This document shows, piece after piece, positions 3,253 to 13,863 of a stretch of DNA of 14,107 nt; position 1 is the first letter of the stretch; each line of letters begins with the position of its first letter. This DNA is from a virus (taxonomy: Duplodnaviria > Heunggongvirae > Uroviricota > Caudoviricetes). The notes beneath the pieces were generated by a model. The model worked only from the letters and a program-made list of their open reading frames with translations, did not search any database and was not told the origin of the DNA. The position numbers and the translations under genes were made by a program. The stretch lies in the IMG/VR virus record IMGVR_UViG_2563366830_000016. One strand, written 5' to 3'.

Positions 3253-3456
3253 ATGGCTAATTACAATTCATTAATTCGTCTCTCTGAAGTTCAAAGGCGA
3301 ACTGGTTATAGCAAAGCATGGATTTATCGTCTTATTAGTCAGGGGAGGTTCCCTAAACAGGTAAAAATTGGAAGTCGGGCAATTGCTTTTGTTGAGTCTG
3401 AAATAGATGAATGGATTGAGAAGTGTATATTAGAATCTAGAGACGAGGTGGCCTGA
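3253..3456 (+). CDS. alpA: AlpA-family phage/island transcriptional regulator (small HTH protein)
   Basis: 67-aa ORF with ...GYSKAWIYRLISQGRFPKQVKIGSRAIAFVESEIDEWIE..., the characteristic AlpA (prophage CP4-57 regulatory protein) pattern; AGGA about 10 nt upstream; same orientation as int, as in P4-like and PICI-type elements. Confidence 0.85.
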   Translation: MANYNSLIRLSEVQRRTGYSKAWIYRLISQGRFPKQVKIGSRAIAFVESEIDEWIEKCILESRDEVA

Positions 3457-3899: not shown

Positions 3900-4733
3900 A
3901 TGAACATCGAAAAAAGCAGATTAATTTCTGAGGCCGCCCCTCATCTGAACGCCTCTCTGGGCACAATTAACGGTAATGAATTTGCCGCAATTGTCCCGGT
4001 TATTCCAGGTCACATCGGTGGGCGTGAAACCAATATTGTTAGCGCAAAAGCGTTACACAAAGCGTTGGGCGTGGGAAAAGACTTCTCTACATGGATCACT
4101 GATCGCATCTCTGAATATGACTTCACCATTGGGCACGATTACTCAGTCCATAAAACAATTTCCCCAAATTTGGGGAAAAGCCCGAATGGCACGGCTTACA
4201 GCAAGATTAAGCAGTCTGGCAGACCCGGCAAAGACTATCTGTTAAGTGTCGGAATGGCGAAAGAGCTGGCAATGATCGAACGCAATGATCAGGGTCGCGC
4301 TATCCGTCGTTATTTCATCCAGTGCGAGGAAGAATTACAGCGTAGCGTGCCTGAAATCGCCGCCCGCTATCGTCGCCAGCTAAAAGCCCGTATCAGTGCC
4401 GCAAACAACTTTAAGCCAATGTGCGATGCGCTGAATATGGCCCGTGCCGAGCAGGGGAAAACGACGCAGCAACACCACTACACAAACGAGAGCAATATGA
4501 TTTCTCGTATCGTTCTTGGAGGGCTAACTGCTAAGCAGTGGGCGCGGATAAATGGCTATTCTGGCGAACCTCGCGACCATATGAACGCAGAACAGCTTGA
4601 GCACCTCTCATATCTCGAAAGCACCAATATCACGTTAATTGATATGGGCATGGAATATGAGCAGCGCAAAGGAGAACTCACCCGCCTGTCGCAACGCTGG
4701 CTCGCCAAGCGTCTGGAGGCGGTCCATGTTTAA
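3900..4733 (+). CDS. Putative phage regulatory/antirepressor-like protein (Rha/KilAC-like region)
   Basis: 277-aa ORF; GGAGA RBS 7 nt upstream; segment DYLLSVGMAKELAMIERNDQGRAIRRYFIQCEEEL resembles the conserved core of phage antirepressor (KilAC/Rha-type) domains. Family assignment is from memory of the motif, not a search. Confidence 0.55.
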   Translation: MNIEKSRLISEAAPHLNASLGTINGNEFAAIVPVIPGHIGGRETNIVSAKALHKALGVGKDFSTWITDRISEYDFTIGHDYSVHKTISPNLGKSPNGTAYSKIKQSGRPGKDYLLSVGMAKELAMIERNDQGRAIRRYFIQCEEELQRSVPEIAARYRRQLKARISAANNFKPMCDALNMARAEQGKTTQQHHYTNESNMISRIVLGGLTAKQWARINGYSGEPRDHMNAEQLEHLSYLESTNITLIDMGMEYEQRKGELTRLSQRWLAKRLEAVHV

Positions 4734-4908
4734 GCCGACAGGAACACCACAACCTCAAAAACGCTACAAAGATGCCCACGGAGCACTCGTTACTGTCGAA
4801 AGCGTGTCTCACAACCGAGTGACGTTTTATCGCGACGGGTATCAATCGCCATGCGTACAACCGCTGGCGCGCTTCATGAAGGAGTTCGCGGAGGTTAACA
4901 AATGCTAA
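4726..4908 (+). CDS. Hypothetical small protein (60 aa)
   Basis: ATG at 4726 preceded by GGAGG (8 nt spacing) and overlapping the stop of the upstream gene; in frame with track ORF 4639-4908. No family recognised. Confidence 0.5.
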   Translation: MFKPTGTPQPQKRYKDAHGALVTVESVSHNRVTFYRDGYQSPCVQPLARFMKEFAEVNKC

Positions 4909-5339
4909 CCGTCCAGAAGAAGATATTTTCACTGACTGCTATGTCGCAAAAATCCAGCAATATGACAGCAAAGTCTGGCATTAATACAGCAGATACAAGC
5001 AAAGCTTATCATTTTATGGTGGTAGGAGCGGATGCCTTAACTATGTCAGAAATTACGGTCGATGGTGTTAGCGTTGAGAAGGTCAGCGGCTGCGCCAGAG
5101 AATTTCTGGTCGTAGATGACCTGTTCTGCTCGCGTAGTGACTCCACAAAAATCTTCGTCCGCACGCGCGACGTTAACGAAATGAGCGCGATGTACTGTGC
5201 CTCTGGTTCTTCCAATAGTGAGTTTTCGGAGTCCATAAAAAAGAGCTTGCCGTTATGCGGCAACACGGTTTATGGTTATAAGGCACCTCATAAAACGGGT
5301 GCCGGGATTAGGACCCCGCAGGCAATCGAGGCGATACAT

Positions 5340-5360
5340 GACGCGCCAGCGTCTTTTTTT
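5340..5360 (+). terminator. Candidate intrinsic terminator / attenuator: GACGC-gcca-GCGTC hairpin followed by T7
   Basis: Read directly: 5-bp GC-rich stem, 4-nt loop, then TTTTTTT at 5354-5360. Short stem, so moderate-to-low confidence. Lies inside the gap with no convincing gene (4909-5524). Confidence 0.35.
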
Positions 5361-5524
5361 GTATCGGCGCACACGCACACCTTATCAATGGTGGGCTGTA
5401 TGGGGCTGACTTCGGTCAGGCTGGTTTCCTTGATTGCCAGTAGTCCTAACCCTGTACAGTCCACCGCCAGCGAGCTTAGGACCTCCGGCGGTGGCTATAA
5501 ACCATCAATCAAGGAGGCTGCCAC

Positions 5525-5719
5525 ATGCTGGCTACTACCCCTACCCAAAAACCGCAATTTATCTGGATTATCGCCGCAGTTCGCCGCGATTGCCCGACAA
5601 TTACCGCCAAAATTCATCATATTGCTGCCGAGTCTGAACGCGATGCTCGCCGTTCTCTGGTGCGCGATCACATCTGCTTTTTTGCTGGTCGTATCCGCAT
5701 GGAGGTGGCACATGATTAA
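5525..5719 (+). CDS. Hypothetical small protein (64 aa); first gene of the coupled operon leading to the primase
   Basis: Strong RBS AAGGAGG at 5511-5517, 7 nt before ATG; host-like codon usage (CTG, CGC, GCC, ATC); its stop overlaps the next gene's start. Confidence 0.7.
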   Translation: MLATTPTQKPQFIWIIAAVRRDCPTITAKIHHIAAESERDARRSLVRDHICFFAGRIRMEVAHD

Positions 5720-5930
5720 AACCTACGATGTGCATATGGATCCCCTCGAACGCACAAGCCAGATCATCACACTGACAGAAGTGATTAACGACATTCTGGT
5801 GAGCAACTCTCCCTCACGAGACGAAAGACTGAAGGCGTTACTCGCGATATTGGATCTCGCCGTTCGTGACGTTCATTTCCTGCTGGAAGGTGGACAAATG
5901 CCATGCAAAACGGGGGCAACCAATGAATAA
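5712..5930 (+). CDS. Hypothetical small protein (72 aa)
   Basis: ATG at 5712 with GGAGGTG 4-10 nt upstream; overlaps the upstream stop; forms the 3' part of track ORF 4902-5930. Confidence 0.6.
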   Translation: MIKTYDVHMDPLERTSQIITLTEVINDILVSNSPSRDERLKALLAILDLAVRDVHFLLEGGQMPCKTGATNE

Positions 5931-6117
5931 CTCAATTAATACCCCTCGCCTTACGTCCGCACTTCAATTAATCGAGCAAGCAGCGGCTGTCCTGGTTGCT
6001 GTCAGTCTTTCGGCTGAAGAAATGGACGCTGCTGATGTCGTGGATGCGATTAAAGCGTGCTCATCTTTGGTTAACGATGCCCGTGCCGAGCTGGTAATTC
6101 TTGGGGGTGAAAAATGA
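5923..6117 (+). CDS. Hypothetical small acidic protein (64 aa)
   Basis: ATG at 5923 (GGGGG 6 nt upstream), overlapping the upstream stop (ATGAATAA); acidic, predicted helical (SAEEMDAADVVDAIKA...). Confidence 0.6.
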   Translation: MNNSINTPRLTSALQLIEQAAAVLVAVSLSAEEMDAADVVDAIKACSSLVNDARAELVILGGEK

Positions 6118-6377
6118 ATATCAACTTAATTTATCGTCATCCGTGTGAGCTGGAAATTGAATCATTGCTGGGGCGCGAAGAGCCATATCCAGACACATTC
6201 ACTCCCGCAGATTGCGCGACTGAACGGCTTACCAGAGCGCGCACAGGTCTGGTTCATGTGATGAATGAGATTGTTCCCTCGGTGGGAGGGGAACAGGCGA
6301 CAGTAATCAATAGCTGGCTACAAAAAGTTACCTCCCTGATAGATATCGGTTTAATCGATGTGGAGAGTGCGAAATGA
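6114..6377 (+). CDS. Hypothetical small acidic protein (87 aa)
   Basis: ATGA start/stop overlap with upstream gene; GGGGGTG RBS. Confidence 0.65.
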   Translation: MNINLIYRHPCELEIESLLGREEPYPDTFTPADCATERLTRARTGLVHVMNEIVPSVGGEQATVINSWLQKVTSLIDIGLIDVESAK

Positions 6378-6595
6378 CCAACATCCAGCTCATTGAAGCG
6401 CAATGTCGCATCGAACAGGTTCAGACTGTTTTAGGGTTCTGGCTTGAAGGGGCCAGCCCCAGCAACAGAGACAAGTTAATGATTGGCGCGGTTATGTCAC
6501 TGCTCAATGGCGTACCAGAAGCTATTCAGGAAGCGGACGAATTGTTGGGCAAATATGAGTTACAGAATCATTCAGGCGAGGCGAAACATGAATAA
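6374..6595 (+). CDS. Hypothetical small protein (73 aa)
   Basis: ATGA overlap with upstream gene; GGAGAG RBS. Confidence 0.65.
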   Translation: MTNIQLIEAQCRIEQVQTVLGFWLEGASPSNRDKLMIGAVMSLLNGVPEAIQEADELLGKYELQNHSGEAKHE

Positions 6596-7190
6596 TTTCT
6601 TAACTTTCCATGCAGAAGCAACGCCTGACGGCGTAAACATCATGTACCGCAGCAACGATGGCATGACAGAACGCGTTGAGACCGTCTCATATATTGATGC
6701 CGTAAATCGTCTGGATGCCGGGGATTATGACGATAAACCAGATGAAGGCATGTTTATACATCTCGCTATTGCCAGTGGCGGCAACCAGGGATATTTCGAT
6801 TACACATCACAGCATCACGTGATTATGTGGCGCTGGCTGATAGCAACAGCATTCATCAATGAAATGAGAAAGGAAAACGGCACTGTCAGCATCATTGATG
6901 ATACTGGCAATCCTTCCGAAGTGGCTGTTTATTCCAACGGCATCGTCGCCATGCCGCTGTATCCAGTAGCAGAGCGCCTCGCTATGGCAAACAACATTGA
7001 GGGCGCGATGATAGAACGTTTTGGCATCGAGTCTGGCACAGAACGCGCCATCATTTTCTACAGAGCCATGATGGATGTGGAACAAGGAGCACTGACTCCA
7101 TTTGGTCGTGAAACGCTTGCTGAACTTCACAACAGCTTTATAGCTGAACTGAATGAAAACGGCATGCCAGCGGAACCAGTGACGCACTGA
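6588..7190 (+). CDS. Hypothetical protein (200 aa)
   Basis: ATG at 6588 overlaps upstream stop (ATGAATAA); GAGG RBS; internal part of track ORF 6483-7190. No family recognised. Confidence 0.7.
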   Translation: MNNFLTFHAEATPDGVNIMYRSNDGMTERVETVSYIDAVNRLDAGDYDDKPDEGMFIHLAIASGGNQGYFDYTSQHHVIMWRWLIATAFINEMRKENGTVSIIDDTGNPSEVAVYSNGIVAMPLYPVAERLAMANNIEGAMIERFGIESGTERAIIFYRAMMDVEQGALTPFGRETLAELHNSFIAELNENGMPAEPVTH

Positions 7191-7200
7191 GGATGGAGCC

Positions 7201-7542
7201 ATGATTACTAAAAATTTCCGACTGAATGCGCTGGCAAATAAGTATGCGTCAGCACTGTATAACCACATTACCTCCACCAGCGGCGGGGACTATTTCATGA
7301 TTGATGCGGACGGAGAGGCCGTCCGTGTGGAAATCGTCAATGGAGTAAAAGGCGTTCGCAGCCTGATCGATAGTTACGCACTGGCAGCCATGAAAGTGTT
7401 CTACCCGCAGTGGGAAACCGTGGGGATCGAGCTTCTTGATCGTTGCGTCACTAAGGACAGATTGACTGACGTCGGGCGTGAGATATGGCAAAGCATGGTT
7501 AATGACATGGGCGCAACTGTAGCGGGAGGTTCTCATGCGTGA
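7201..7542 (+). CDS. Hypothetical protein (113 aa)
   Basis: GAGGATGGAG RBS directly upstream; overlaps downstream gene start. Confidence 0.7.
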   Translation: MITKNFRLNALANKYASALYNHITSTSGGDYFMIDADGEAVRVEIVNGVKGVRSLIDSYALAAMKVFYPQWETVGIELLDRCVTKDRLTDVGREIWQSMVNDMGATVAGGSHA

Positions 7543-7906
7543 AAATGTAGAAATGGCGCTTAGCTCCGCAATCGGAGAGCAGGTGGCAAAGATTGCTGGT
7601 GCTGTGTGGATTCATAACCTTCATTCTACTGGTGAAGAGAAAATGGCAATTCAGACGCCAGAGGGACGCACCATTACTACATCTCTGAAGCCGTCAGATG
7701 TTTGTGATCTGATTTGCGCATTCATGTACCCAGCAATGAGGACTGTCCACGGCGATAAGTGGAAACTTGCGACAACCGCTGAATTTGATATGTGGCTAAA
7801 CAATGATGGCATGCTGACTGATTACGGAATAACCAAGTGGCAGATGCTAGTTAGCCATATCGCAAACGCTATAGACCACGTGGGGTACGGTGATGCGAAA
7901 CATTGA
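7535..7906 (+). CDS. Hypothetical protein (123 aa)
   Basis: GGGAGG RBS 6 nt upstream; 3' end overlaps the primase start by 14-17 nt. Confidence 0.7.
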   Translation: MRENVEMALSSAIGEQVAKIAGAVWIHNLHSTGEEKMAIQTPEGRTITTSLKPSDVCDLICAFMYPAMRTVHGDKWKLATTAEFDMWLNNDGMLTDYGITKWQMLVSHIANAIDHVGYGDAKH

Positions 7907-10649
7907 TCTTATCCGTCAGGTTATCAGTGCGTCTGAAAACAACTGGCCTCATGTGCTGGGCTGCCTGAACATAAATGTCCCTGACTCTCCGCGCCGTCAT
8001 GCTCCCTGCCCTGCATGTGGGGGCAAAGATCGATTCCGGTTCGATGACAACGGGCGCGGTAGCTTCATCTGTAATCAGTGCGGCGCTGGTGATGGGCTGG
8101 ATTTAATTAAACGCGTAAATAACTGCGACACAACAGAGGCGGCGCTTCTTGCCGCTGATGTTCTGGGTATTGATTACCGGACAACGGAAACACCAGAAGC
8201 CACCAGCCAGAAACGGGAACAACTGGAAACCGAGCGCCAGCGACGCGAACAGGAGCGCCTGAAAAGGGCAGAGAAGGACGAACAACAAAGACGGGATACG
8301 TTTTCCCGTCAGTTTGATGACATGCGCAGAAAGGCTGTAAACGGCAAATCTGATTATCTGGTTGCGAAAGGGGTAGGTGATTTTACATTCCCCGTGTTGC
8401 CCGATGGATCTCTGTTGCTGGCGCTGGTGGATAAATCCGGCGCAGTAACAGCAGCACAGACTATTACCTCACATGGTGAAAAAAGACTCCTGACAGGTTC
8501 AGCAAAGCGAGGGGCATATCACGCCATAAACGCACCAGAAACAACACAGAGCATCTTAATCGCAGAAGGGCTGGCAACGGCATTATCTGCCCATTTAATG
8601 CGTCCAGAGGCGCTGACAGTGGCGGCGATTGATGCCGGGAACCTGTTATATGTCGCCCAGGTACTGCGGGATAAATTTCCTTCAGCACAAATCATCATTG
8701 CTGCGGATAACGACCACAGCGAAGGAAGACAAAACACGGGGAGAATAGCAGCAGAAAAAGCAGCTTTATCTGTTTCTGGATGGGTGGCATTACCCCCGAC
8801 AGATCACAAAGCAGACTGGAATGATTACCACCAAAAACACGGCATTAAATGCGCCACAGAAGCGTTCAATAAGTCAATGTACCAACCACAGGGTAATGGC
8901 GTGAAACAGGAGCCACAGACCATTGAGGGAAGCGATTTTAAGGTTATGGATACCGATCCACTGAAACCAAGAATAGAAAGCCGCGAGGATGGTATTTATT
9001 GGGTATCTCCGAGAGCTGACAGCCAGAGTGGAGAAATCATCAATAACGAAAGCTGGTTATGTTCTCCGTTAAGCGTTATCGGTACTGGCAGAGACGATAA
9101 AGACCAGTATCTCATTCTTCGCTGGCTGTCGTTTGGTTCTGAAACGCCGACAACCGCTGCCATTCCACTGGCTGATATTGGTGAACGTGAAGGATGGCGC
9201 ACACTTAAAGCTGGTGGGGTAAATGTCACGACCAAAAGCAGCCTCAGAGCAATACTGGCAGACTGGCTACAACGCAGTGGCTCTCGTGAATTGTGGCGTG
9301 TTGCTCATGCCACTGGCTGGCAATGCGGAGCGTACATCATGCCTGATGGGGAAATCATCGGAACACCTGAAAATCCTGTGCTGTTCAGCGGGAGAAGCTC
9401 AGCCGCAGCCGGATATACCGTCTCAGGGAGCGCGAAAAGCTGGCGTGATAACGTGGCGCGTCTGGCCTTTGGTAACTATTCAATGATGACCGGGATCGGC
9501 GCAGCACTGGCAGCGCCATTGATTGGGCTGGTGGGCGCTGACGGGTTCGGCATTCATTTCTATGAGCAGTCGAGCGCAGGTAAGACCACCACGGCAAACG
9601 TGGCGAGCAGCTTATACGGCAACCCTGATTTACTGCGGCTGACGTGGTACGGAACCGCGCTGGGGCTGGCAAATGAGGCCGCCGCCCACAATGACGGACT
9701 AATGCCGCTTGATGAAGTTGGTCAGGGCGCTGATCCTGTCAGCGTTTCACAGTCTGCCTATGCGTTATTTAACGGTGTAGGGAAACTGCAAGGCGCTAAA
9801 GATGGTGGAAACCGGGATCTAAAACGCTGGCGTACAGTGGCAATCAGCACCGGAGAAATGGATTTAGAAACATTTATCGCTACTTCCGGGCGAAAAACCA
9901 AAGCCGGGCAACTGGTGCGACTGCTGAATATTCCGTTGAGTAAAGCAGTACGCTTTCACGATTACCAGAACGGAAAACAGCACGCAGACGCACTGAAAGA
10001 CGCTTACCAGCATCACCACGGCGCGTCCGGGCGTGAGTGGATTAAATGGCTGGCAGACCACCAGCAACAGGCTATTAAAACCGTTCGTGACTGCGAAAGC
10101 AGATGGAGAAGCCTGATCCCATCCGATTATGGTGAGCAGGTTCACCGTGTAGCCGCGCGATTTGCCATTCTGGAGGCCGCATTGTTGTTAGGCGAGGTTG
10201 TAACAGGCTGGGATGCTCAGACATGCCGTGATGCGATACAGCACAGCTATAACGCATGGTTGCGCGAGTTCGGCACAGGTAACAAAGAGCATCAGCAGAT
10301 TATTGAACAAACGGAGGCATTTCTTAATGCCTATGGGCTTAGCCGTTTTGCACCATTTCCATACAGCCCGGCAGATTTGCCCATCAAAGATTTAGCCGGA
10401 TACCGTCAGCGTGGAGAACATGACGAAAGCCCAATGATTTTCTACACATTCCCGGCCACATTTGAAAAGGAGATCGCATGTGGTTTCAACGCAAAACAGT
10501 TTGCTGAAGTGTTGAAAAAAGCCGGGATGCTAACCCCACCAAACAGCGGTCGTGGATACCAAAGAAAATCACCACGTATTCAGGGACGACAAATAAACGT
10601 TTATGTACTCAATTACCAGCCAGGAGATTATAACTCATCTGAAGAATGA
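7890..10649 (+). CDS. Satellite/phage-type DNA primase-helicase (primase Zn-ribbon + TOPRIM + P-loop NTPase, P4 alpha-like)
   Basis: 919-aa ORF. N-terminal zinc-ribbon CPACGG...FICNQCG typical of primase-helicase Zn-binding domains; charged linker (EQLETERQRREQERLKRAEKDEQQRR); TOPRIM-like acidic motif (IAADNDHSEGRQ); Walker A (SSAGKTTT). Track start is GTG 7890; ATG at 7893 is the alternative. Confidence 0.9.
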   Translation: MMRNIDLIRQVISASENNWPHVLGCLNINVPDSPRRHAPCPACGGKDRFRFDDNGRGSFICNQCGAGDGLDLIKRVNNCDTTEAALLAADVLGIDYRTTETPEATSQKREQLETERQRREQERLKRAEKDEQQRRDTFSRQFDDMRRKAVNGKSDYLVAKGVGDFTFPVLPDGSLLLALVDKSGAVTAAQTITSHGEKRLLTGSAKRGAYHAINAPETTQSILIAEGLATALSAHLMRPEALTVAAIDAGNLLYVAQVLRDKFPSAQIIIAADNDHSEGRQNTGRIAAEKAALSVSGWVALPPTDHKADWNDYHQKHGIKCATEAFNKSMYQPQGNGVKQEPQTIEGSDFKVMDTDPLKPRIESREDGIYWVSPRADSQSGEIINNESWLCSPLSVIGTGRDDKDQYLILRWLSFGSETPTTAAIPLADIGEREGWRTLKAGGVNVTTKSSLRAILADWLQRSGSRELWRVAHATGWQCGAYIMPDGEIIGTPENPVLFSGRSSAAAGYTVSGSAKSWRDNVARLAFGNYSMMTGIGAALAAPLIGLVGADGFGIHFYEQSSAGKTTTANVASSLYGNPDLLRLTWYGTALGLANEAAAHNDGLMPLDEVGQGADPVSVSQSAYALFNGVGKLQGAKDGGNRDLKRWRTVAISTGEMDLETFIATSGRKTKAGQLVRLLNIPLSKAVRFHDYQNGKQHADALKDAYQHHHGASGREWIKWLADHQQQAIKTVRDCESRWRSLIPSDYGEQVHRVAARFAILEAALLLGEVVTGWDAQTCRDAIQHSYNAWLREFGTGNKEHQQIIEQTEAFLNAYGLSRFAPFPYSPADLPIKDLAGYRQRGEHDESPMIFYTFPATFEKEIACGFNAKQFAEVLKKAGMLTPPNSGRGYQRKSPRIQGRQINVYVLNYQPGDYNSSEE

Positions 10650-10672: not shown

Positions 10673-10787
10673 GTGTTGGTTCAGTTGGTTTAGTTGGTTC
10701 AATTTGTAAAGAGTATTGTTTTATAAGGATTTTATTCTTTTTATTGAACCAACACTGAACCAACAACACGGTATTTTGAACCAACAC
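10673..10787. repeat. Iteron-type origin candidate: 3 direct repeats GTTGGTT(C/T)A (10673-10701), AT-rich spacer, 3 inverted copies TGAACCAAC(A)AC (10745-10787)
   Basis: Read directly. Clustered 9-11 bp repeats in opposing orientation around an AT-rich core, immediately downstream of the primase-helicase gene, is the classic arrangement of a satellite/phage replication origin. Confidence 0.65.
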
Positions 10788-11233: not shown

Positions 11234-11395
11234 ATGGCTATTTCAGTAAAGCCGGTATTGATAAGTGAGAAGCAAATGGAAGCGATAAAGAAAATTCAGG
11301 AAGAGCAGCGTAAAAAATCAGGAATTGGAGTAGCGCCAACTCTGCATGAAATTGCACGAGGGTTAATAGATAAGGCGCTGGCAGGCTGTATGTGA
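11234..11395 (+). CDS. Small ORF (53 aa), ribbon-helix-helix-like predicted fold; putative DNA-binding regulator or antitoxin-like protein
   Basis: Below the 60-aa track cutoff; found by reading. AAGGGGG RBS 4-5 nt upstream. MAISVKPVLISEKQMEAIKKIQEEQRKKSGIGVAPTLHEIARGLIDKALAGCM shows a beta-strand/helix/helix pattern typical of Arc/MetJ/CopG-type proteins. Fold assignment is inference. Confidence 0.45.
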   Translation: MAISVKPVLISEKQMEAIKKIQEEQRKKSGIGVAPTLHEIARGLIDKALAGCM

Positions 11396-11411
11396 AAATG
11401 GATGGCATCGC

Positions 11412-11873
11412 ATGGAACTAAAATTTATTGATAACCCTGTGCGATTACAGGCCTTTCTTAACGAGCCAGGCAATACCGAAAATATTGTTGAGCCGGGGCA
11501 CACGTACTACATCAAGCCTGATGCGGTATATCTCGGCATCTACGAAGGATTAGTGCTGGCTGGCGTTCATGAAGTGCGTAACTTCTGGCATAGCGTTGTT
11601 GAATGCCATGCGGTGTACGACCCCGGATTCCGTGGTGAATATGCACTGCAAGGACATCGATTATTCTGCAAATGGCTTCTCGAAAACTCACCATTCCTTA
11701 ACAGCATCACTATGGTTCCTGACACCACGAAATACGGACGGGCAATTATCCGTTTGCTTGGCGCTACCCGTGTTGGTCACCTTGATGATGCTTATATCAG
11801 ATGTGGTAAACCCGTCGGCGTAACGCTTTATCAGTTAACTCGGCAACAATATAAGGAATTCAGCGAATGTTAA
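11412..11873 (+). CDS. Hypothetical protein (153 aa), possibly P22 gp14-like; co-transcribed with downstream ejection-protein-like genes
   Basis: 153-aa ORF; its stop overlaps the next gene's start (ATGTTAA). Position and size match the gene preceding gp7 in P22-like clusters; the homology is recalled, not verified. Confidence 0.6.
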   Translation: MELKFIDNPVRLQAFLNEPGNTENIVEPGHTYYIKPDAVYLGIYEGLVLAGVHEVRNFWHSVVECHAVYDPGFRGEYALQGHRLFCKWLLENSPFLNSITMVPDTTKYGRAIIRLLGATRVGHLDDAYIRCGKPVGVTLYQLTRQQYKEFSEC

Positions 11874-12544
11874 TTACCCATATAGCTCATAAACATCTCA
11901 ATCGTGCCGTATACGAAAAAGGCGGTGATGGTGGTGCCTCTAAAGCTCAGGCGAAGGCCCAGCAGCAGGCAATTGATTTGCAGCGCGAGCAGTGGAATAC
12001 GGTGATGAATAATCTCAAGCCGTATGCAGAAGTCGGATTGCCTGCTTTACAACAACTACAAGGACTGATGACTCTGGAAGGGCAGAATAAAGCCGCGAAT
12101 GATTTCTTTGGTTCTGGTTTATATAAAACACAGGCAGATCAGGCCCGTTATCAGAACCTTGTCTCAGCAGAAACTACCGGGGGGCTTGGCTCAACAGCTA
12201 CCAGTAACCAGTTATCTTCCATTGCGCCCATGCTTTATAACAATTGGCTTAGTGGGCAAATGCAAAATTATGGAAACCTGCTAAATGTCGGGATGAATGC
12301 GGCATCAGGGCAGGCAACGGCAGGGCAAAACTACGCCAATAATACCGGACAACTCTTGCAGGGGCTTGGCGCTATTCGTGCAGGTCAGGCGCAGCAGCCA
12401 TCCAGTCTTGCGCGTGGTATTGGTGGGGCAGCATCAGGCGCTTTAGCGGGTGCGCAACTTGGTTCCGTTGTTCCTGGAATAGGAACTGCGGCCGGCGCTA
12501 TTGGTGGTGGGCTTATTGGTCTTGTTGGGGGGCTTGGATTCTAA
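11867..12544 (+). CDS. P22 gp7-like DNA-transfer (ejection) protein candidate, Gln/Gly/Ala-rich with glycine-zipper hydrophobic C-terminus
   Basis: 225-aa ORF, AAGGA RBS; low-complexity Q/G/A-rich composition and C-terminal GIGTAAGAIGGGLIGLVGGLGF segment. Size and composition match podovirus ejection protein gp7 (about 229 aa). Assignment by composition and synteny only. Confidence 0.55.
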   Translation: MLITHIAHKHLNRAVYEKGGDGGASKAQAKAQQQAIDLQREQWNTVMNNLKPYAEVGLPALQQLQGLMTLEGQNKAANDFFGSGLYKTQADQARYQNLVSAETTGGLGSTATSNQLSSIAPMLYNNWLSGQMQNYGNLLNVGMNAASGQATAGQNYANNTGQLLQGLGAIRAGQAQQPSSLARGIGGAASGALAGAQLGSVVPGIGTAAGAIGGGLIGLVGGLGF

Positions 12545-13863
12545 TGGCGACATGGCAACTTGGCGGGCTGCCTAGCATGGCACCGCAAAATGATAATGCT
12601 CCTCGTTCTTCCGTTCCTCAGCCTGTGCAGTATCAGCAGCAGCCAAACGTAGGTTTAATGGCGCTACAGGGGCTAAGAGGCGTTGCTGAGATTAATCAGC
12701 AGGCGCAAATTTCCCAGCAGCTAAAAGAATATCAGGCACGGTTGGGTAGTGCGGTAGCTAATAATGATCGTGTTGGCGTGCAGAAGTTAATGGCCCAGTA
12801 TCCCCAGTTTATGGCTGATTCTCAAAAACAGATGGGATTCATTGATGCTGAGCAAAATCGGCAGACCGCTGACGCTGCCATGAATCTGCGTCTTGCGTCA
12901 CAAACTGGAGATCCACTGACCATGCAGAAGGCCATTCAGCAGGCAAATCCAGTATTACAGCGATTTGGTCTTCCTGCTGAAGAGGTTTATCAGTCTTGGC
13001 AGAATGACCCACAGGAATTCAACAGAATCACTGACCTCATCCACCTCCATGCTGATCCAAATAGTTACTTTAGTGTTCAAGAGAAGCAGCAAGGGCAGAG
13101 TATTGCACAGCAGAACGCAGATACATCTGCATATAATGCTCAGGTTAATGCGGAGCAGGGTAATCGGCGGCTCGATATGGAGCAGTTCAAAGTCCTATCC
13201 GATAACCAACTACGCACGAGAGAAATGGTTCTGAAAGCACGACTTGGACGTGCTCAAAATGACATCGAGAGAGACAAGCTCAATGCTGAACTGAGCAAGG
13301 TACAGCAGGCGAAAGTGGAGAAGATGAACGATAAAATTAATACTGTTGCAGGTAATATCGACTCCTTGAACTCTGCGCTTGAAGTGGGTCATGAACTGGC
13401 GGGAATTGTAGGGAAACATCCTTCGGCCGTTACCCGTTCGCAGAACTATAACCCCCTGACGCTGGGGTTTGGATTCCTCCCTGATGTAGCAGAAGACACA
13501 CGAAGCCTACGCGCCAAAGCTGATGAATACAACCTAAAGGTTATTCTGCCTAGCCTAAAAGGTACTTTTGGCTCTAACCCAACCGAAGGGGAAAGGGCTG
13601 CCCTTATGCAATCTCAAAATGGCATTAAGTCAGCAACCAGCAATGAGGCATTTTTGCGAGAGTTGAATAAAGCGCAGGACGTAATTATTCGAATGCAGAA
13701 ACGACAGATTGCCGGGCTCGGTATTCCTGTAACCAAATCTAAGGACGAAGAAACTGATACCAAAATGCTGTTGCAGGATCCTTCACTGGTTAAGGATTAT
13801 GTGACCGCACATGGCTATCTGCCGGAAAGTTACTATCAGGCAAAACTTAAGGGATGGCAATGA
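12544..13863 (+). CDS. P22 gp20-like DNA-transfer (ejection) protein candidate, Gln-rich coiled-coil protein
   Basis: 439-aa ORF starting at TAATG overlap with the upstream gene; Q-rich, helical/coiled-coil character; size and position match gp20 (about 470 aa) of P22-like phages. Assignment is inference. Confidence 0.55.
   Translation: MATWQLGGLPSMAPQNDNAPRSSVPQPVQYQQQPNVGLMALQGLRGVAEINQQAQISQQLKEYQARLGSAVANNDRVGVQKLMAQYPQFMADSQKQMGFIDAEQNRQTADAAMNLRLASQTGDPLTMQKAIQQANPVLQRFGLPAEEVYQSWQNDPQEFNRITDLIHLHADPNSYFSVQEKQQGQSIAQQNADTSAYNAQVNAEQGNRRLDMEQFKVLSDNQLRTREMVLKARLGRAQNDIERDKLNAELSKVQQAKVEKMNDKINTVAGNIDSLNSALEVGHELAGIVGKHPSAVTRSQNYNPLTLGFGFLPDVAEDTRSLRAKADEYNLKVILPSLKGTFGSNPTEGERAALMQSQNGIKSATSNEAFLRELNKAQDVIIRMQKRQIAGLGIPVTKSKDEETDTKMLLQDPSLVKDYVTAHGYLPESYYQAKLKGWQ

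Follow-up and report, generated by a model that had tools for sequence, protein, structure and literature searches.

The 14,107-nt stretch of DNA recorded as IMG/VR entry IMGVR_UViG_2563366830_000016 (the window, whose positions are used throughout) contains a copy of the proA-thrW island of E. coli, an element with the layout of Gram-negative phage-inducible chromosomal islands (PICIs) and P4-related satellites. The copy in the window is integrated at thrW in E. coli. The subject of this work is a block of eight small genes, g1 to g8, that leads into the primase gene of the island, and for which an earlier note had proposed a role as an undescribed helper-interference or anti-defence module.

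The eight-gene operon

All eight open reading frames (ORFs) listed in the earlier note are present on the + strand with the same limits:

5525-5719, + strand: g1, 64 aa
5712-5930, + strand: g2, 72 aa
5923-6117, + strand: g3, 64 aa
6114-6377, + strand: g4, 87 aa
6374-6595, + strand: g5, 73 aa
6588-7190, + strand: g6, 200 aa
7201-7542, + strand: g7, 113 aa
7535-7906, + strand: g8, 123 aa

Each gene starts with ATG and is preceded by a purine-rich stretch resembling a Shine-Dalgarno (SD) sequence. The junctions from g1 to g6 overlap by 8, 8, 4, 4 and 8 nt, g6 and g7 are separated by a gap of 10 nt, and g7 overlaps g8 by 8 nt. The last gene runs into the primase with an overlap of 17 nt if translation of the latter begins at GTG 7890, or of 14 nt from ATG 7893, the start selected by the Prokaryotic Genome Annotation Pipeline (PGAP). 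The statement that every junction overlaps by 4-17 nt is therefore correct for the 4- and 8-nt overlaps and for the primase, but not for the g6-g7 gap. An ORF-chain caller that maximises coverage returns precisely g1-g8, and all eight families are under purifying selection, with a median ratio of nonsynonymous to synonymous substitutions (dN/dS) of 0.16-0.23. The eight ORFs are real genes, and their arrangement is not due to chance. A consensus scan of the + strand between 5360 and 9537 detected neither promoter-like nor terminator-like sites; this, the overlaps and the result of the ORF-chain caller bear out the proposal of a single, tightly coupled operon that continues into the primase. As for the small, acidic nature attributed to the products, it applies to seven of them (isoelectric point, pI, 4.2-5.6) and fails for g1, which is basic (pI 9.5).

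The control region upstream of g1

The DNA immediately preceding g1 carries the following features:

4902..5930, + strand: 'ash family' / eta-like ORF, open across the RNA genes, overlapping g1 out of frame and having its frame and stop codon in common with g2
5247..5276, + strand: candidate constitutive promoter, putative analogue of P4 PLE (TTGCCG-18 nt-TATGGT, start near 5283), read from the sequence
5283..5359, + strand: IsrK/SeqA-like RNA (Rfam RF01394, 63 bits against a gathering score of 50)
5308-5331, + strand: upstream C4 target, TTAGGAC...CAATCGAGG, inside the IsrK-like RNA
5340-5360, + strand: intrinsic terminator at the end of the IsrK-like RNA
5384..5471, + strand: C4/CI-type antisense (immunity) RNA (Rfam RF01695, full length, 80.2 bits against a gathering score of 45)
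5476..5516, + strand: downstream (seqB-like) C4 target, TTAGGAC...CAATCAAGG, overlapping the g1 SD sequence AAGGAGG

The C4 RNA gene thus lies 54 nt upstream of g1 on the same strand, with the IsrK/SeqA-like RNA before it. Both Rfam models also match the CI and seqA regions of P4, as well as ten of the ten related loci tested, always just 5′ of an icd-like gene. A bipartite motif, TTAGGAC-N-CAATCRAGG, is found in two sense copies (5308-5331 and 5476-5514) and in one reverse complement inside C4, the number of copies expected by chance being 0.00. The predicted duplex between the C4 loop region and the upstream site reaches -37.1 kcal/mol, a value attained by none of 500 shuffled targets, and that with the downstream site -32.2 kcal/mol, attained by one of 500. 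In related islands, complementarity of 8-15 nt between the loop and the SD sequence is kept in 37 of 38 distinct upstream regions, where the two partners covary; the variable core adopts at least 13 different sequences among relatives, every one of which is matched by its own C4 loop. This comparative covariation is the strongest evidence for the predicted pairing of C4 with the SD sequence of g1.

The first gene of the operon fits this arrangement. The g1 product matches the Icd-like NCBIfam model NF033153 with 70.4 bits against a cut-off of 25 (9.8e-20), and is 41% identical to the 65-aa Kil protein of P4. Judged from its sequence, g1 is a Kil/Icd homologue and the putative first translated gene of an immunity-controlled operon. 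The constituents of an antisense immunity module are accordingly found together at this locus, namely a C4/CI RNA on the same strand, loop-complementary targets on both of its sides and Kil/Icd as the first gene. Because the C4 loop is predicted to pair with the SD region of g1 and this pairing covaries, the operon can be regarded as the counterpart of the immunity-controlled left operon of P4.

Islands with 99% identical primases and small genes were seen to differ in the core shared by the C4 loop and the icd SD region. The core is CAATCAAGG in the window (pair CAATCAAGG/CCTTGATTG), and GTACAAGG, TCGAATGG or TCTGAAGG in near-identical relatives (compare L011-L016 and L021); the presence of different C4 cores in near-identical islands therefore suggests an exchange of immunity specificities between islands.

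The ORF that spans the RNA genes is annotated by PGAP as a 342-aa ash family protein in locus L001 and is split in L003. Its match to Pfam Phage_ASH (PF10554) covers residues 124-219, that is, window positions 5272-5559, coincident with the isrK and C4 RNA genes, so that the conservation captured by Phage_ASH may be largely RNA-driven. Published work on P4-like satellites uses PF10554 as their 'epsilon/Ash' marker; P4 epsilon itself corresponds to PF25738. Nearly all relatives maintain an open frame through the RNA region. In 13 of 55 of them this upstream ORF reads in the frame of icd, as in the eta/kil nesting of P4, and in most others, the window included, it uses another frame. A segment within this ORF (5050-5167) has counterparts of 86-92% identity in many other E. 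coli prophage regions, where the DNA bears the annotation of a partial 'DNA-packaging protein'; in the matching segment of L003, PGAP places a pseudogene fragment on the minus strand.

Comparative anatomy of the icd-to-primase interval

Eighty loci collected through the N-terminus of the primase were considered together with four E. coli genome loci and the window, and 56 loci proved to have both an Icd/Kil homologue and a primase. These display 28 architectures, with one to ten small genes between icd and primase. Of 190 junctions, 165 overlap, the length of the overlap being 4 nt in 99 of them and 8 nt in 42, and the sole regular gap is the one after g6. The interval is populated by about a dozen families that keep a fixed order: icd (55 loci), g6 (50), g4 (49), g5 (40), g7/g8 (36), u1, a basic protein of 59 aa (30), g2 (24) and g3 (15), plus a few rarer ones. 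Given this small number of families and their constant order, the interval represents a semi-conserved gene set with presence/absence variation rather than a hypervariable cargo hotspot. The basic character of g1 is shared by its family (median pI 11.1), and the acidity of the acidic products is likewise a conserved family trait.

Among the genes that follow g1, g2 encodes an acidic protein in the position of P4 epsilon, with homologues of 39-51% identity in its 24 loci (dN/dS 0.20). The acidic g3 is restricted to the close E. coli/Salmonella lineage (dN/dS 0.22, from 7 pairs), and scans against Pfam and PADLOC gave only sub-threshold noise. Wider distributions are displayed by g4 (acidic; 49 of the 56 loci, 25-54% identity, dN/dS 0.20) and g5 (acidic; 40 of the 56, dN/dS 0.16), the latter belonging to phrog_20558 (2.9e-9), a family without annotated function. 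The public name of g4, 'nicotinic acetylcholine receptor subunit beta', is spurious, and so is another name found among these small proteins, 'ubiquinol-cytochrome C reductase' (L008 5693-6007).

The earlier note recognised no characterised family in the operon. This has to be withdrawn for g1, and it stands for g2-g8, none of which gave a Pfam, NCBIfam or PADLOC match above noise (E of about 0.005 or weaker). Among the models of these three collections, no g2-g8 product matches a known anti-restriction or anti-defence family. Only g5, g6 and g7 belong to PHROGs, all of them unannotated, and when 35 diverse representatives of the small-gene families were compared with Pfam and PHROG, nothing emerged beyond unannotated PHROGs and one integrase-like outlier. 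Public records of the exact g2-g8 proteins bear the label 'hypothetical' or spurious names, and their accessions are cited in no paper found.

The products of g6, g7 and g8

The strongly acidic g6 belongs to a family present in 50 of the 56 loci and assigned to one of the unannotated PHROGs. Homologues of about 33-37% identity are encoded in the early regions of temperate phages, including phiP27, Stx phages, Klebsiella prophages and Aeromonas AsXd-1; in phiP27 the homologue lies between the repressor and int/xis. This occurrence in temperate-phage early regions argues for a role that is not specific to satellites. The family is small (144 clusters in an exhaustive profile search) and without informative domain fusions, and the structural model of g6 is weak (predicted local distance difference test, pLDDT, 61), with no meaningful structural neighbour. 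Neither the g6 nor the g7 family profile found anything when compared with the sequences of the PDB. A relationship of g6 to P4 Cnr (DUF5375) had been suggested by precomputed PF17345 flags on three g6 homologues, and was rejected on the basis of a null result in a direct Pfam scan and an hhalign probability of 1.8%. None of the g2-g8 products gave a Pfam hit at E<=1 to P4 epsilon (PF25738) or to Cnr (PF17345, DUF5375), two models that do recognise the P4 proteins, and no relation of g2-g8 to P4 epsilon, orf151 or Cnr was detectable; for g8, the hhalign probability against Cnr is 0.2%.

The g7 product belongs to phrog_37628 (3.1e-50), a family spread across the Enterobacterales, and in relatives it is usually the last gene before the primase. 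Alignment of g7 with g8 gave a blastp E of 0.013 and an hhalign probability of 79% (E 1.6e-5) over 93 colinear columns, and both fall into a single blastp cluster. On this sequence comparison, g7 and g8 are distant tandem paralogues. They are the only paralogous pair retrieved in an all-against-all hhalign comparison of the small-gene families, where the C-terminus of g6 reached only 20% probability against g7/g8. The AlphaFold2 model of g8 (pLDDT 88.9) consists of three long helices and a β-hairpin, and no informative match was obtained for it in PDB or BFVD. A ubiquitin-like (β-grasp) nature of g8 was considered and discarded: the similarity to polyubiquitin is an artefact of summed repeats, and the model lacks a β-grasp fold. 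Overall, the g6 and g8 models are predicted to be largely helical, and none of the g2-g8 products displays an enzymatic signature.

Two islands, L007 and L017, whose primases are 99.8% and 99% identical to that of the window, respectively, lack both g7 and g8. In addition, in the island EcCICFT073 a cloned pri-ori segment replicates alone (PMC6092414). These two facts make g7 and g8 unlikely to be core replication factors. Most likely, as far as sequence comparison indicates, g2-g8 would be accessory to the replication machinery rather than part of its core.

Organisation of the island

The window begins inside proA, followed by the tRNA gene at which the island is inserted. Outside the operon and its control region, the features that frame the element are the following:

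1369-1444: tRNA-Thr (thrW)
1610-2824: int, P4-type integrase, co-directional with alpA and the primase
3253..3456, + strand: alpA-type regulator (Pfam Phage_AlpA, 7.4e-20)
3900-4733: AntA-type gene, upstream of the eight-gene module
7890..10649, + strand: primase-helicase, 918/919 aa, with zinc ribbon, Toprim and DUF927 (Pfam)
10673..10787, no strand assigned: origin-like region, directly after the primase stop codon

The gene order is P4-type int, alpA, a 143-aa ORF, a gene of the AntA family, DUF4222, the 'ash family' ORF, g1-g8, primase, the origin-like region and late genes. The alpA gene heads a closely packed co-directional chain (alpA-orf143-antA-DUF4222-ash ORF) whose junctions are, in order, an overlap of 1 nt, a gap of 12 nt and overlaps of 8 and 7 nt, and which runs into the eight-gene module. 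AlpA is the activator that induces Gram-negative PICIs (PMC6092414), and these islands have been described as organised in four zones, Integration, Bro, Replication and Late (PMC10111431), an organisation into which the window element fits. As in PICIs, int, alpA and pri are co-directional beside a specific attachment site (tRNA-Thr), and an origin with two sets of iterons around an AT-rich region lies downstream of pri. The satellite nature proposed for the island is thereby supported by its int, alpA, AntA/Ash zone, primase, iteron origin and late zone. Regarding attL and attR, the 3′ end of the tRNA has no second copy within the window; in strain A20 the whole island sits between yicC and dinD. 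P4-like satellites in the sense of Moura de Sousa & Rocha carry int, psu, delta, sid, alpA, epsilon/Ash and alpha (PMC8628076). Neither psu, delta nor sid is found among the window ORFs or annotated in the complete A20 copy, and for this reason the element falls outside that published definition.

The primase belongs to phrog_1139 (2.4e-178) and shares 33% identity with P4 alpha over the N-terminal part of the latter. Its first ~345 residues are 72-85% identical to those of primases with other C-terminal halves, of the DUF5906 type in L003 and of the 'P4 family' type in both L008 and L009; such modularity of sequence suggests a recombination joint on the C-terminal side of the Toprim domain. 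An IS3-family element splits the primase gene in some copies of the island that are identical in other respects (L001 12467-13680; H1, strain M15), and because of this interruption such copies are probably replication-defective. The origin-like region contains three direct GTTGGTTYA iterons with 9-nt spacing and three inverted copies (TGAACCAAC), with an AT-rich spacer between the two sets, a layout that agrees with that of the Gram-negative PICI origins of PMC6092414.

The island is common. Among 5,426 complete E. coli genomes, 987 (18%) match part of the segment 4700-8000 and 249 match at least 80% of it, and 490 (~9%) contain the g2-g5 block with an identity of at least 95%. The Rfam 'int-alpA RNA' (RF02996) lies between int and alpA in the related islands L008, L026, L031, L052, L056 and L069; none was detected in the window, even at E<=1.

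P22-type ejection-protein genes and their association with g8

The late zone (11234-13863) runs past the end of the window, and comprises a conserved 53-aa ORF and the genes for DUF2824 (P22 gp14), P22_gp7 and gp20 (Inj_translocase); just past the window lies a gene for an SLT/P22_gp16-like protein of ~900 aa. From these genes, the helper can be guessed to be a P22-like podovirus. In strain A20 (L010, L091) the same island, equipped with a different integrase, carries the same gp14, gp7 and gp20 genes, and also encodes a 906-aa protein with a lytic-transglycosylase domain, counterparts of which in other islands have SLT and P22_gp16 Pfam hits. The gp7 copies of the islands form their own clade and are at most 64% identical to phage copies. 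The possibility that the P22-like genes are a remnant of a P22 prophage at thrW is ruled out by this gp7 clade and by the cluster at yicC/dinD with its different integrase.

In the 56-locus set, the ejection cluster is found in every g8 locus in which the primase is intact and the sequence downstream can be seen, except L014, where gp14 and gp7 were not found, and the backbones that combine g8 with the cluster have three different primase C-termini. The cluster was found in none of the loci without g8 within the fetched sequence, which ends ~7 kb past the primase start. The association extends to divergent g8 homologues (51-65% identity): the cluster accompanies them in Kluyvera, Serratia and Citrobacter freundii genomes and in two metagenome contigs (among L104, L105, L107, L109 and L110), and one further locus contains a degraded remnant of it. 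Conversely, wherever a gp7 locus lies downstream of a PICI-type primase, g8 immediately precedes that primase (L119 and L103 representing one contig). Between the window and L031, g8 is 87% identical, compared with 70% for the flanking g7 and 68% for the N-terminus of the primase, and this greater similarity of g8 relative to its flanks argues for co-selection of g8 and the ejection genes. The link of g8 to islands with ejection proteins suggests a role connected with the P22-type helper.

In the Kluyvera-type islands L104 and L109, no small gene other than g8 separates the 143-aa ORF from the primase, and a second block, composed of an Ash-like ORF and small ORFs with an icd-like match, follows the primase and SSB and precedes the ejection genes. 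This arrangement is a rearranged version of the module.

Interpretation and alternative explanations

With a probability of roughly two in three, g1-g8 make up the promoter-proximal part of an early, replication-driving operon of a Gram-negative PICI or P4-related satellite, and very probably an antisense RNA encoded by the island gates this operon via g1. The steps envisaged in vivo follow those of P1 immI, of P4 (summarised in PMC10111431) and of Gifsy-1 IsrK (PMC4825925). In the quiescent island, C4 would pair with both of its target sites, mask the ribosome-binding site of g1 and promote premature termination. Upon induction, transcription from the helper-activated alpA promoter, together with translation of the RNA-spanning ORF and of g1, would override the C4 block. 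The overlapping stop and start codons would then hand ribosomes through g2-g8 to the primase; this coupling would keep the message translated and Rho-resistant, and the whole operon would be switched on as a unit. The g2-g8 products would most likely be non-catalytic binding or modulator proteins made at induction.

Several points weigh against this reading. The match of the candidate promoter at 5247-5276 is weak, and the site escaped the consensus scan. The ash/eta-like ORF is out of frame with g1 in the window lineage, unlike eta/kil in P4, and the read-through mechanism may for that reason differ in detail from that of P4. The role assigned to g2-g8 draws on composition, on context and on the negative outcome of the homology and fold searches. 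As for g8, an island of Citrobacter portucalensis carries the gene and has no ejection cluster (L106), and the link between g8 and the ejection genes could derive in part from shared ancestry.

The earlier note saw in these genes, or in several of g2-g8, a dedicated module of acidic inhibitors or DNA mimics directed against host immunity or the helper. Such a module would account for the seven acidic products and for the conservation of their acidity across families, and its location would be apt, given that the corresponding place in P4 is occupied by epsilon, the helper-derepression gene of that satellite; in this respect the note was right to describe the position as one that satellites use for helper manipulation. 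The same idea draws on the relatives of g6 in accessory early regions of temperate phages (repressor to int/xis in phiP27), on the fact that g8 tracks a late module specific to the type of helper, and on the comparison of loci, by which none of these genes is required by the primase. However, g2-g8 match nothing in PADLOC, Pfam or NCBIfam, epsilon (PF25738) included, the g6 model offers no informative fold match, and the g8 model, predicted with confidence, is that of an ordinary bundle of helices without an informative neighbour. Moreover, the small gene set, conserved in order and under purifying selection, does not resemble a fast-turnover cargo hotspot, and the known defence and interference genes of PICIs and P4 are located elsewhere in those elements (PMC8628076; PMC10085698). 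A dedicated module of this kind is thus unlikely, and its anti-defence part has no positive support. A helper-related function is possible, most plausibly for g8. One tentative version, to which we would give no better odds, is that g8 is a neofunctionalised duplicate of g7 that acts, maybe with other members of the module, as an early factor adapting this lineage to P22-like podovirus helpers, and that it works with the gp14, gp7, gp20 and gp16-like proteins of the island.

For g7 and g8, and possibly g6, the main alternative is a replication accessory or regulatory role, in which these proteins, as functional analogues of P4 Cnr, would bind to the primase and modulate either copy number or the firing of the origin. 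The gene before the primase is always g7 or g8 and overlaps the primase start by 11-17 nt, just as cnr directly precedes alpha in P4, and Kluyvera-type islands retain g8 as the only small gene at that place. Dispensability weakens this view: islands with 99% identical primases exist without g7 and g8, DUF927 primases of 79-86% identity often occur without g8, and the pri-ori segment of EcCICFT073 suffices for replication (PMC6092414). Nor did hhalign relate g6 (1.8%) or g8 (0.2%) to Cnr, and a search for homology to known replication accessory proteins, which the earlier note had singled out as contrary evidence, found none. Taken together, a Cnr-like function seems improbable. More improbable by far is a toxin-antitoxin-like pair in which one of the acidic proteins encoded downstream of g1 serves as antidote to the basic Kil/Icd. 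The charges would suit it (pI 9.5 for g1 and a family median of 11.1, with an 8-nt overlap into the acidic g2), and overexpression of P4 Kil kills cells (summarised in PMC10111431), but the gene after icd varies, being g2 in 24 loci, the basic u1 in 30 and others elsewhere, and P4 has epsilon in the post-kil position.

The operon gated by antisense RNA remains the preferred explanation, and in it g1 and the control logic are known, while g2-g8 are conserved and uncharacterised; as a satellite operon, it is largely ordinary. The description of the module as new therefore has to be confined to g2-g8, since both the Kil/Icd first gene and the IsrK/SeqA and C4/CI RNA device have precedents, the latter having already been noted in Gram-negative PICIs (PMC10111431). 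The practical value of this assignment lies in annotation, as it concerns common E. coli genes that are now 'hypothetical' or misnamed. In addition, placing them in a P4-type gated operon indicates ways to switch them on, either by removing C4 pairing or by inducing AlpA, and implies that polar effects reach the primase. Current understanding is otherwise unchanged unless the functions of g2-g8 prove new. The islands that carry ejection-protein genes are a more unusual item than the operon itself: no description of satellites with such genes was found in the literature searched, and the association of g8 with the cluster offers a concrete, testable hypothesis on how this satellite type exploits its helper. 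If g8 is indeed adapted to P22-like helpers, the islands would follow a novel satellite strategy, that of supplying or replacing the DNA-ejection proteins of the helper, and the small-gene block would be a helper-manipulation toolkit.

Comparison with known systems

In the immI region of P1 (c4-icd-ant), the first ORF is short and coupled to the downstream genes, and its ribosome-binding site is under the control of an antisense RNA. The isrK-orf45-anrP region of Gifsy-1 follows a similar logic, in which a structured RNA governs the ribosome-binding site of the short ORF in first position and coupling at an AUGA junction downstream of IsrK, shown experimentally, passes the decision on (PMC4825925). 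Unlike these two systems, whose cargo is an antirepressor, the window operon has seven uncharacterised proteins and the primase as its cargo, and its AntA-type gene lies upstream.

The left operon of P4, with the order PLE-seqA-cI-seqB-kil/eta-epsilon-orf151-cnr-alpha, resembles that of the window in having IsrK/SeqA-like and C4/CI RNAs in the same order upstream of a Kil homologue, with antisense targets on both sides, and in the small genes with 8-nt overlaps that lead to a zinc-ribbon/Toprim primase-helicase (the kil stop and the epsilon start of P4 likewise overlap by 8 nt). On the other hand, g2-g8 are, as far as is detectable, unrelated to epsilon, orf151 and cnr, the ash/eta-like ORF does not share its frame with g1, the C-terminus of the primase is DUF927 and not of the P4 type, and sid, delta and psu are seen neither in the window nor in the full A20 copy.

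With PICIs of the EcCICFT073 type and capsid-forming PICIs (cf-PICIs), the element shares the unidirectional int-alpA-...-pri order, the origin downstream of pri with two iteron sets round an AT-rich spacer, and a late zone of phage derivation; its close relative L008 possesses capsid and protease genes, as a cf-PICI does. Unlike those islands, the late zone of the window encodes P22-type gp14, gp7, gp20 and gp16-like ejection proteins in place of capsid, terS or Rpp functions.

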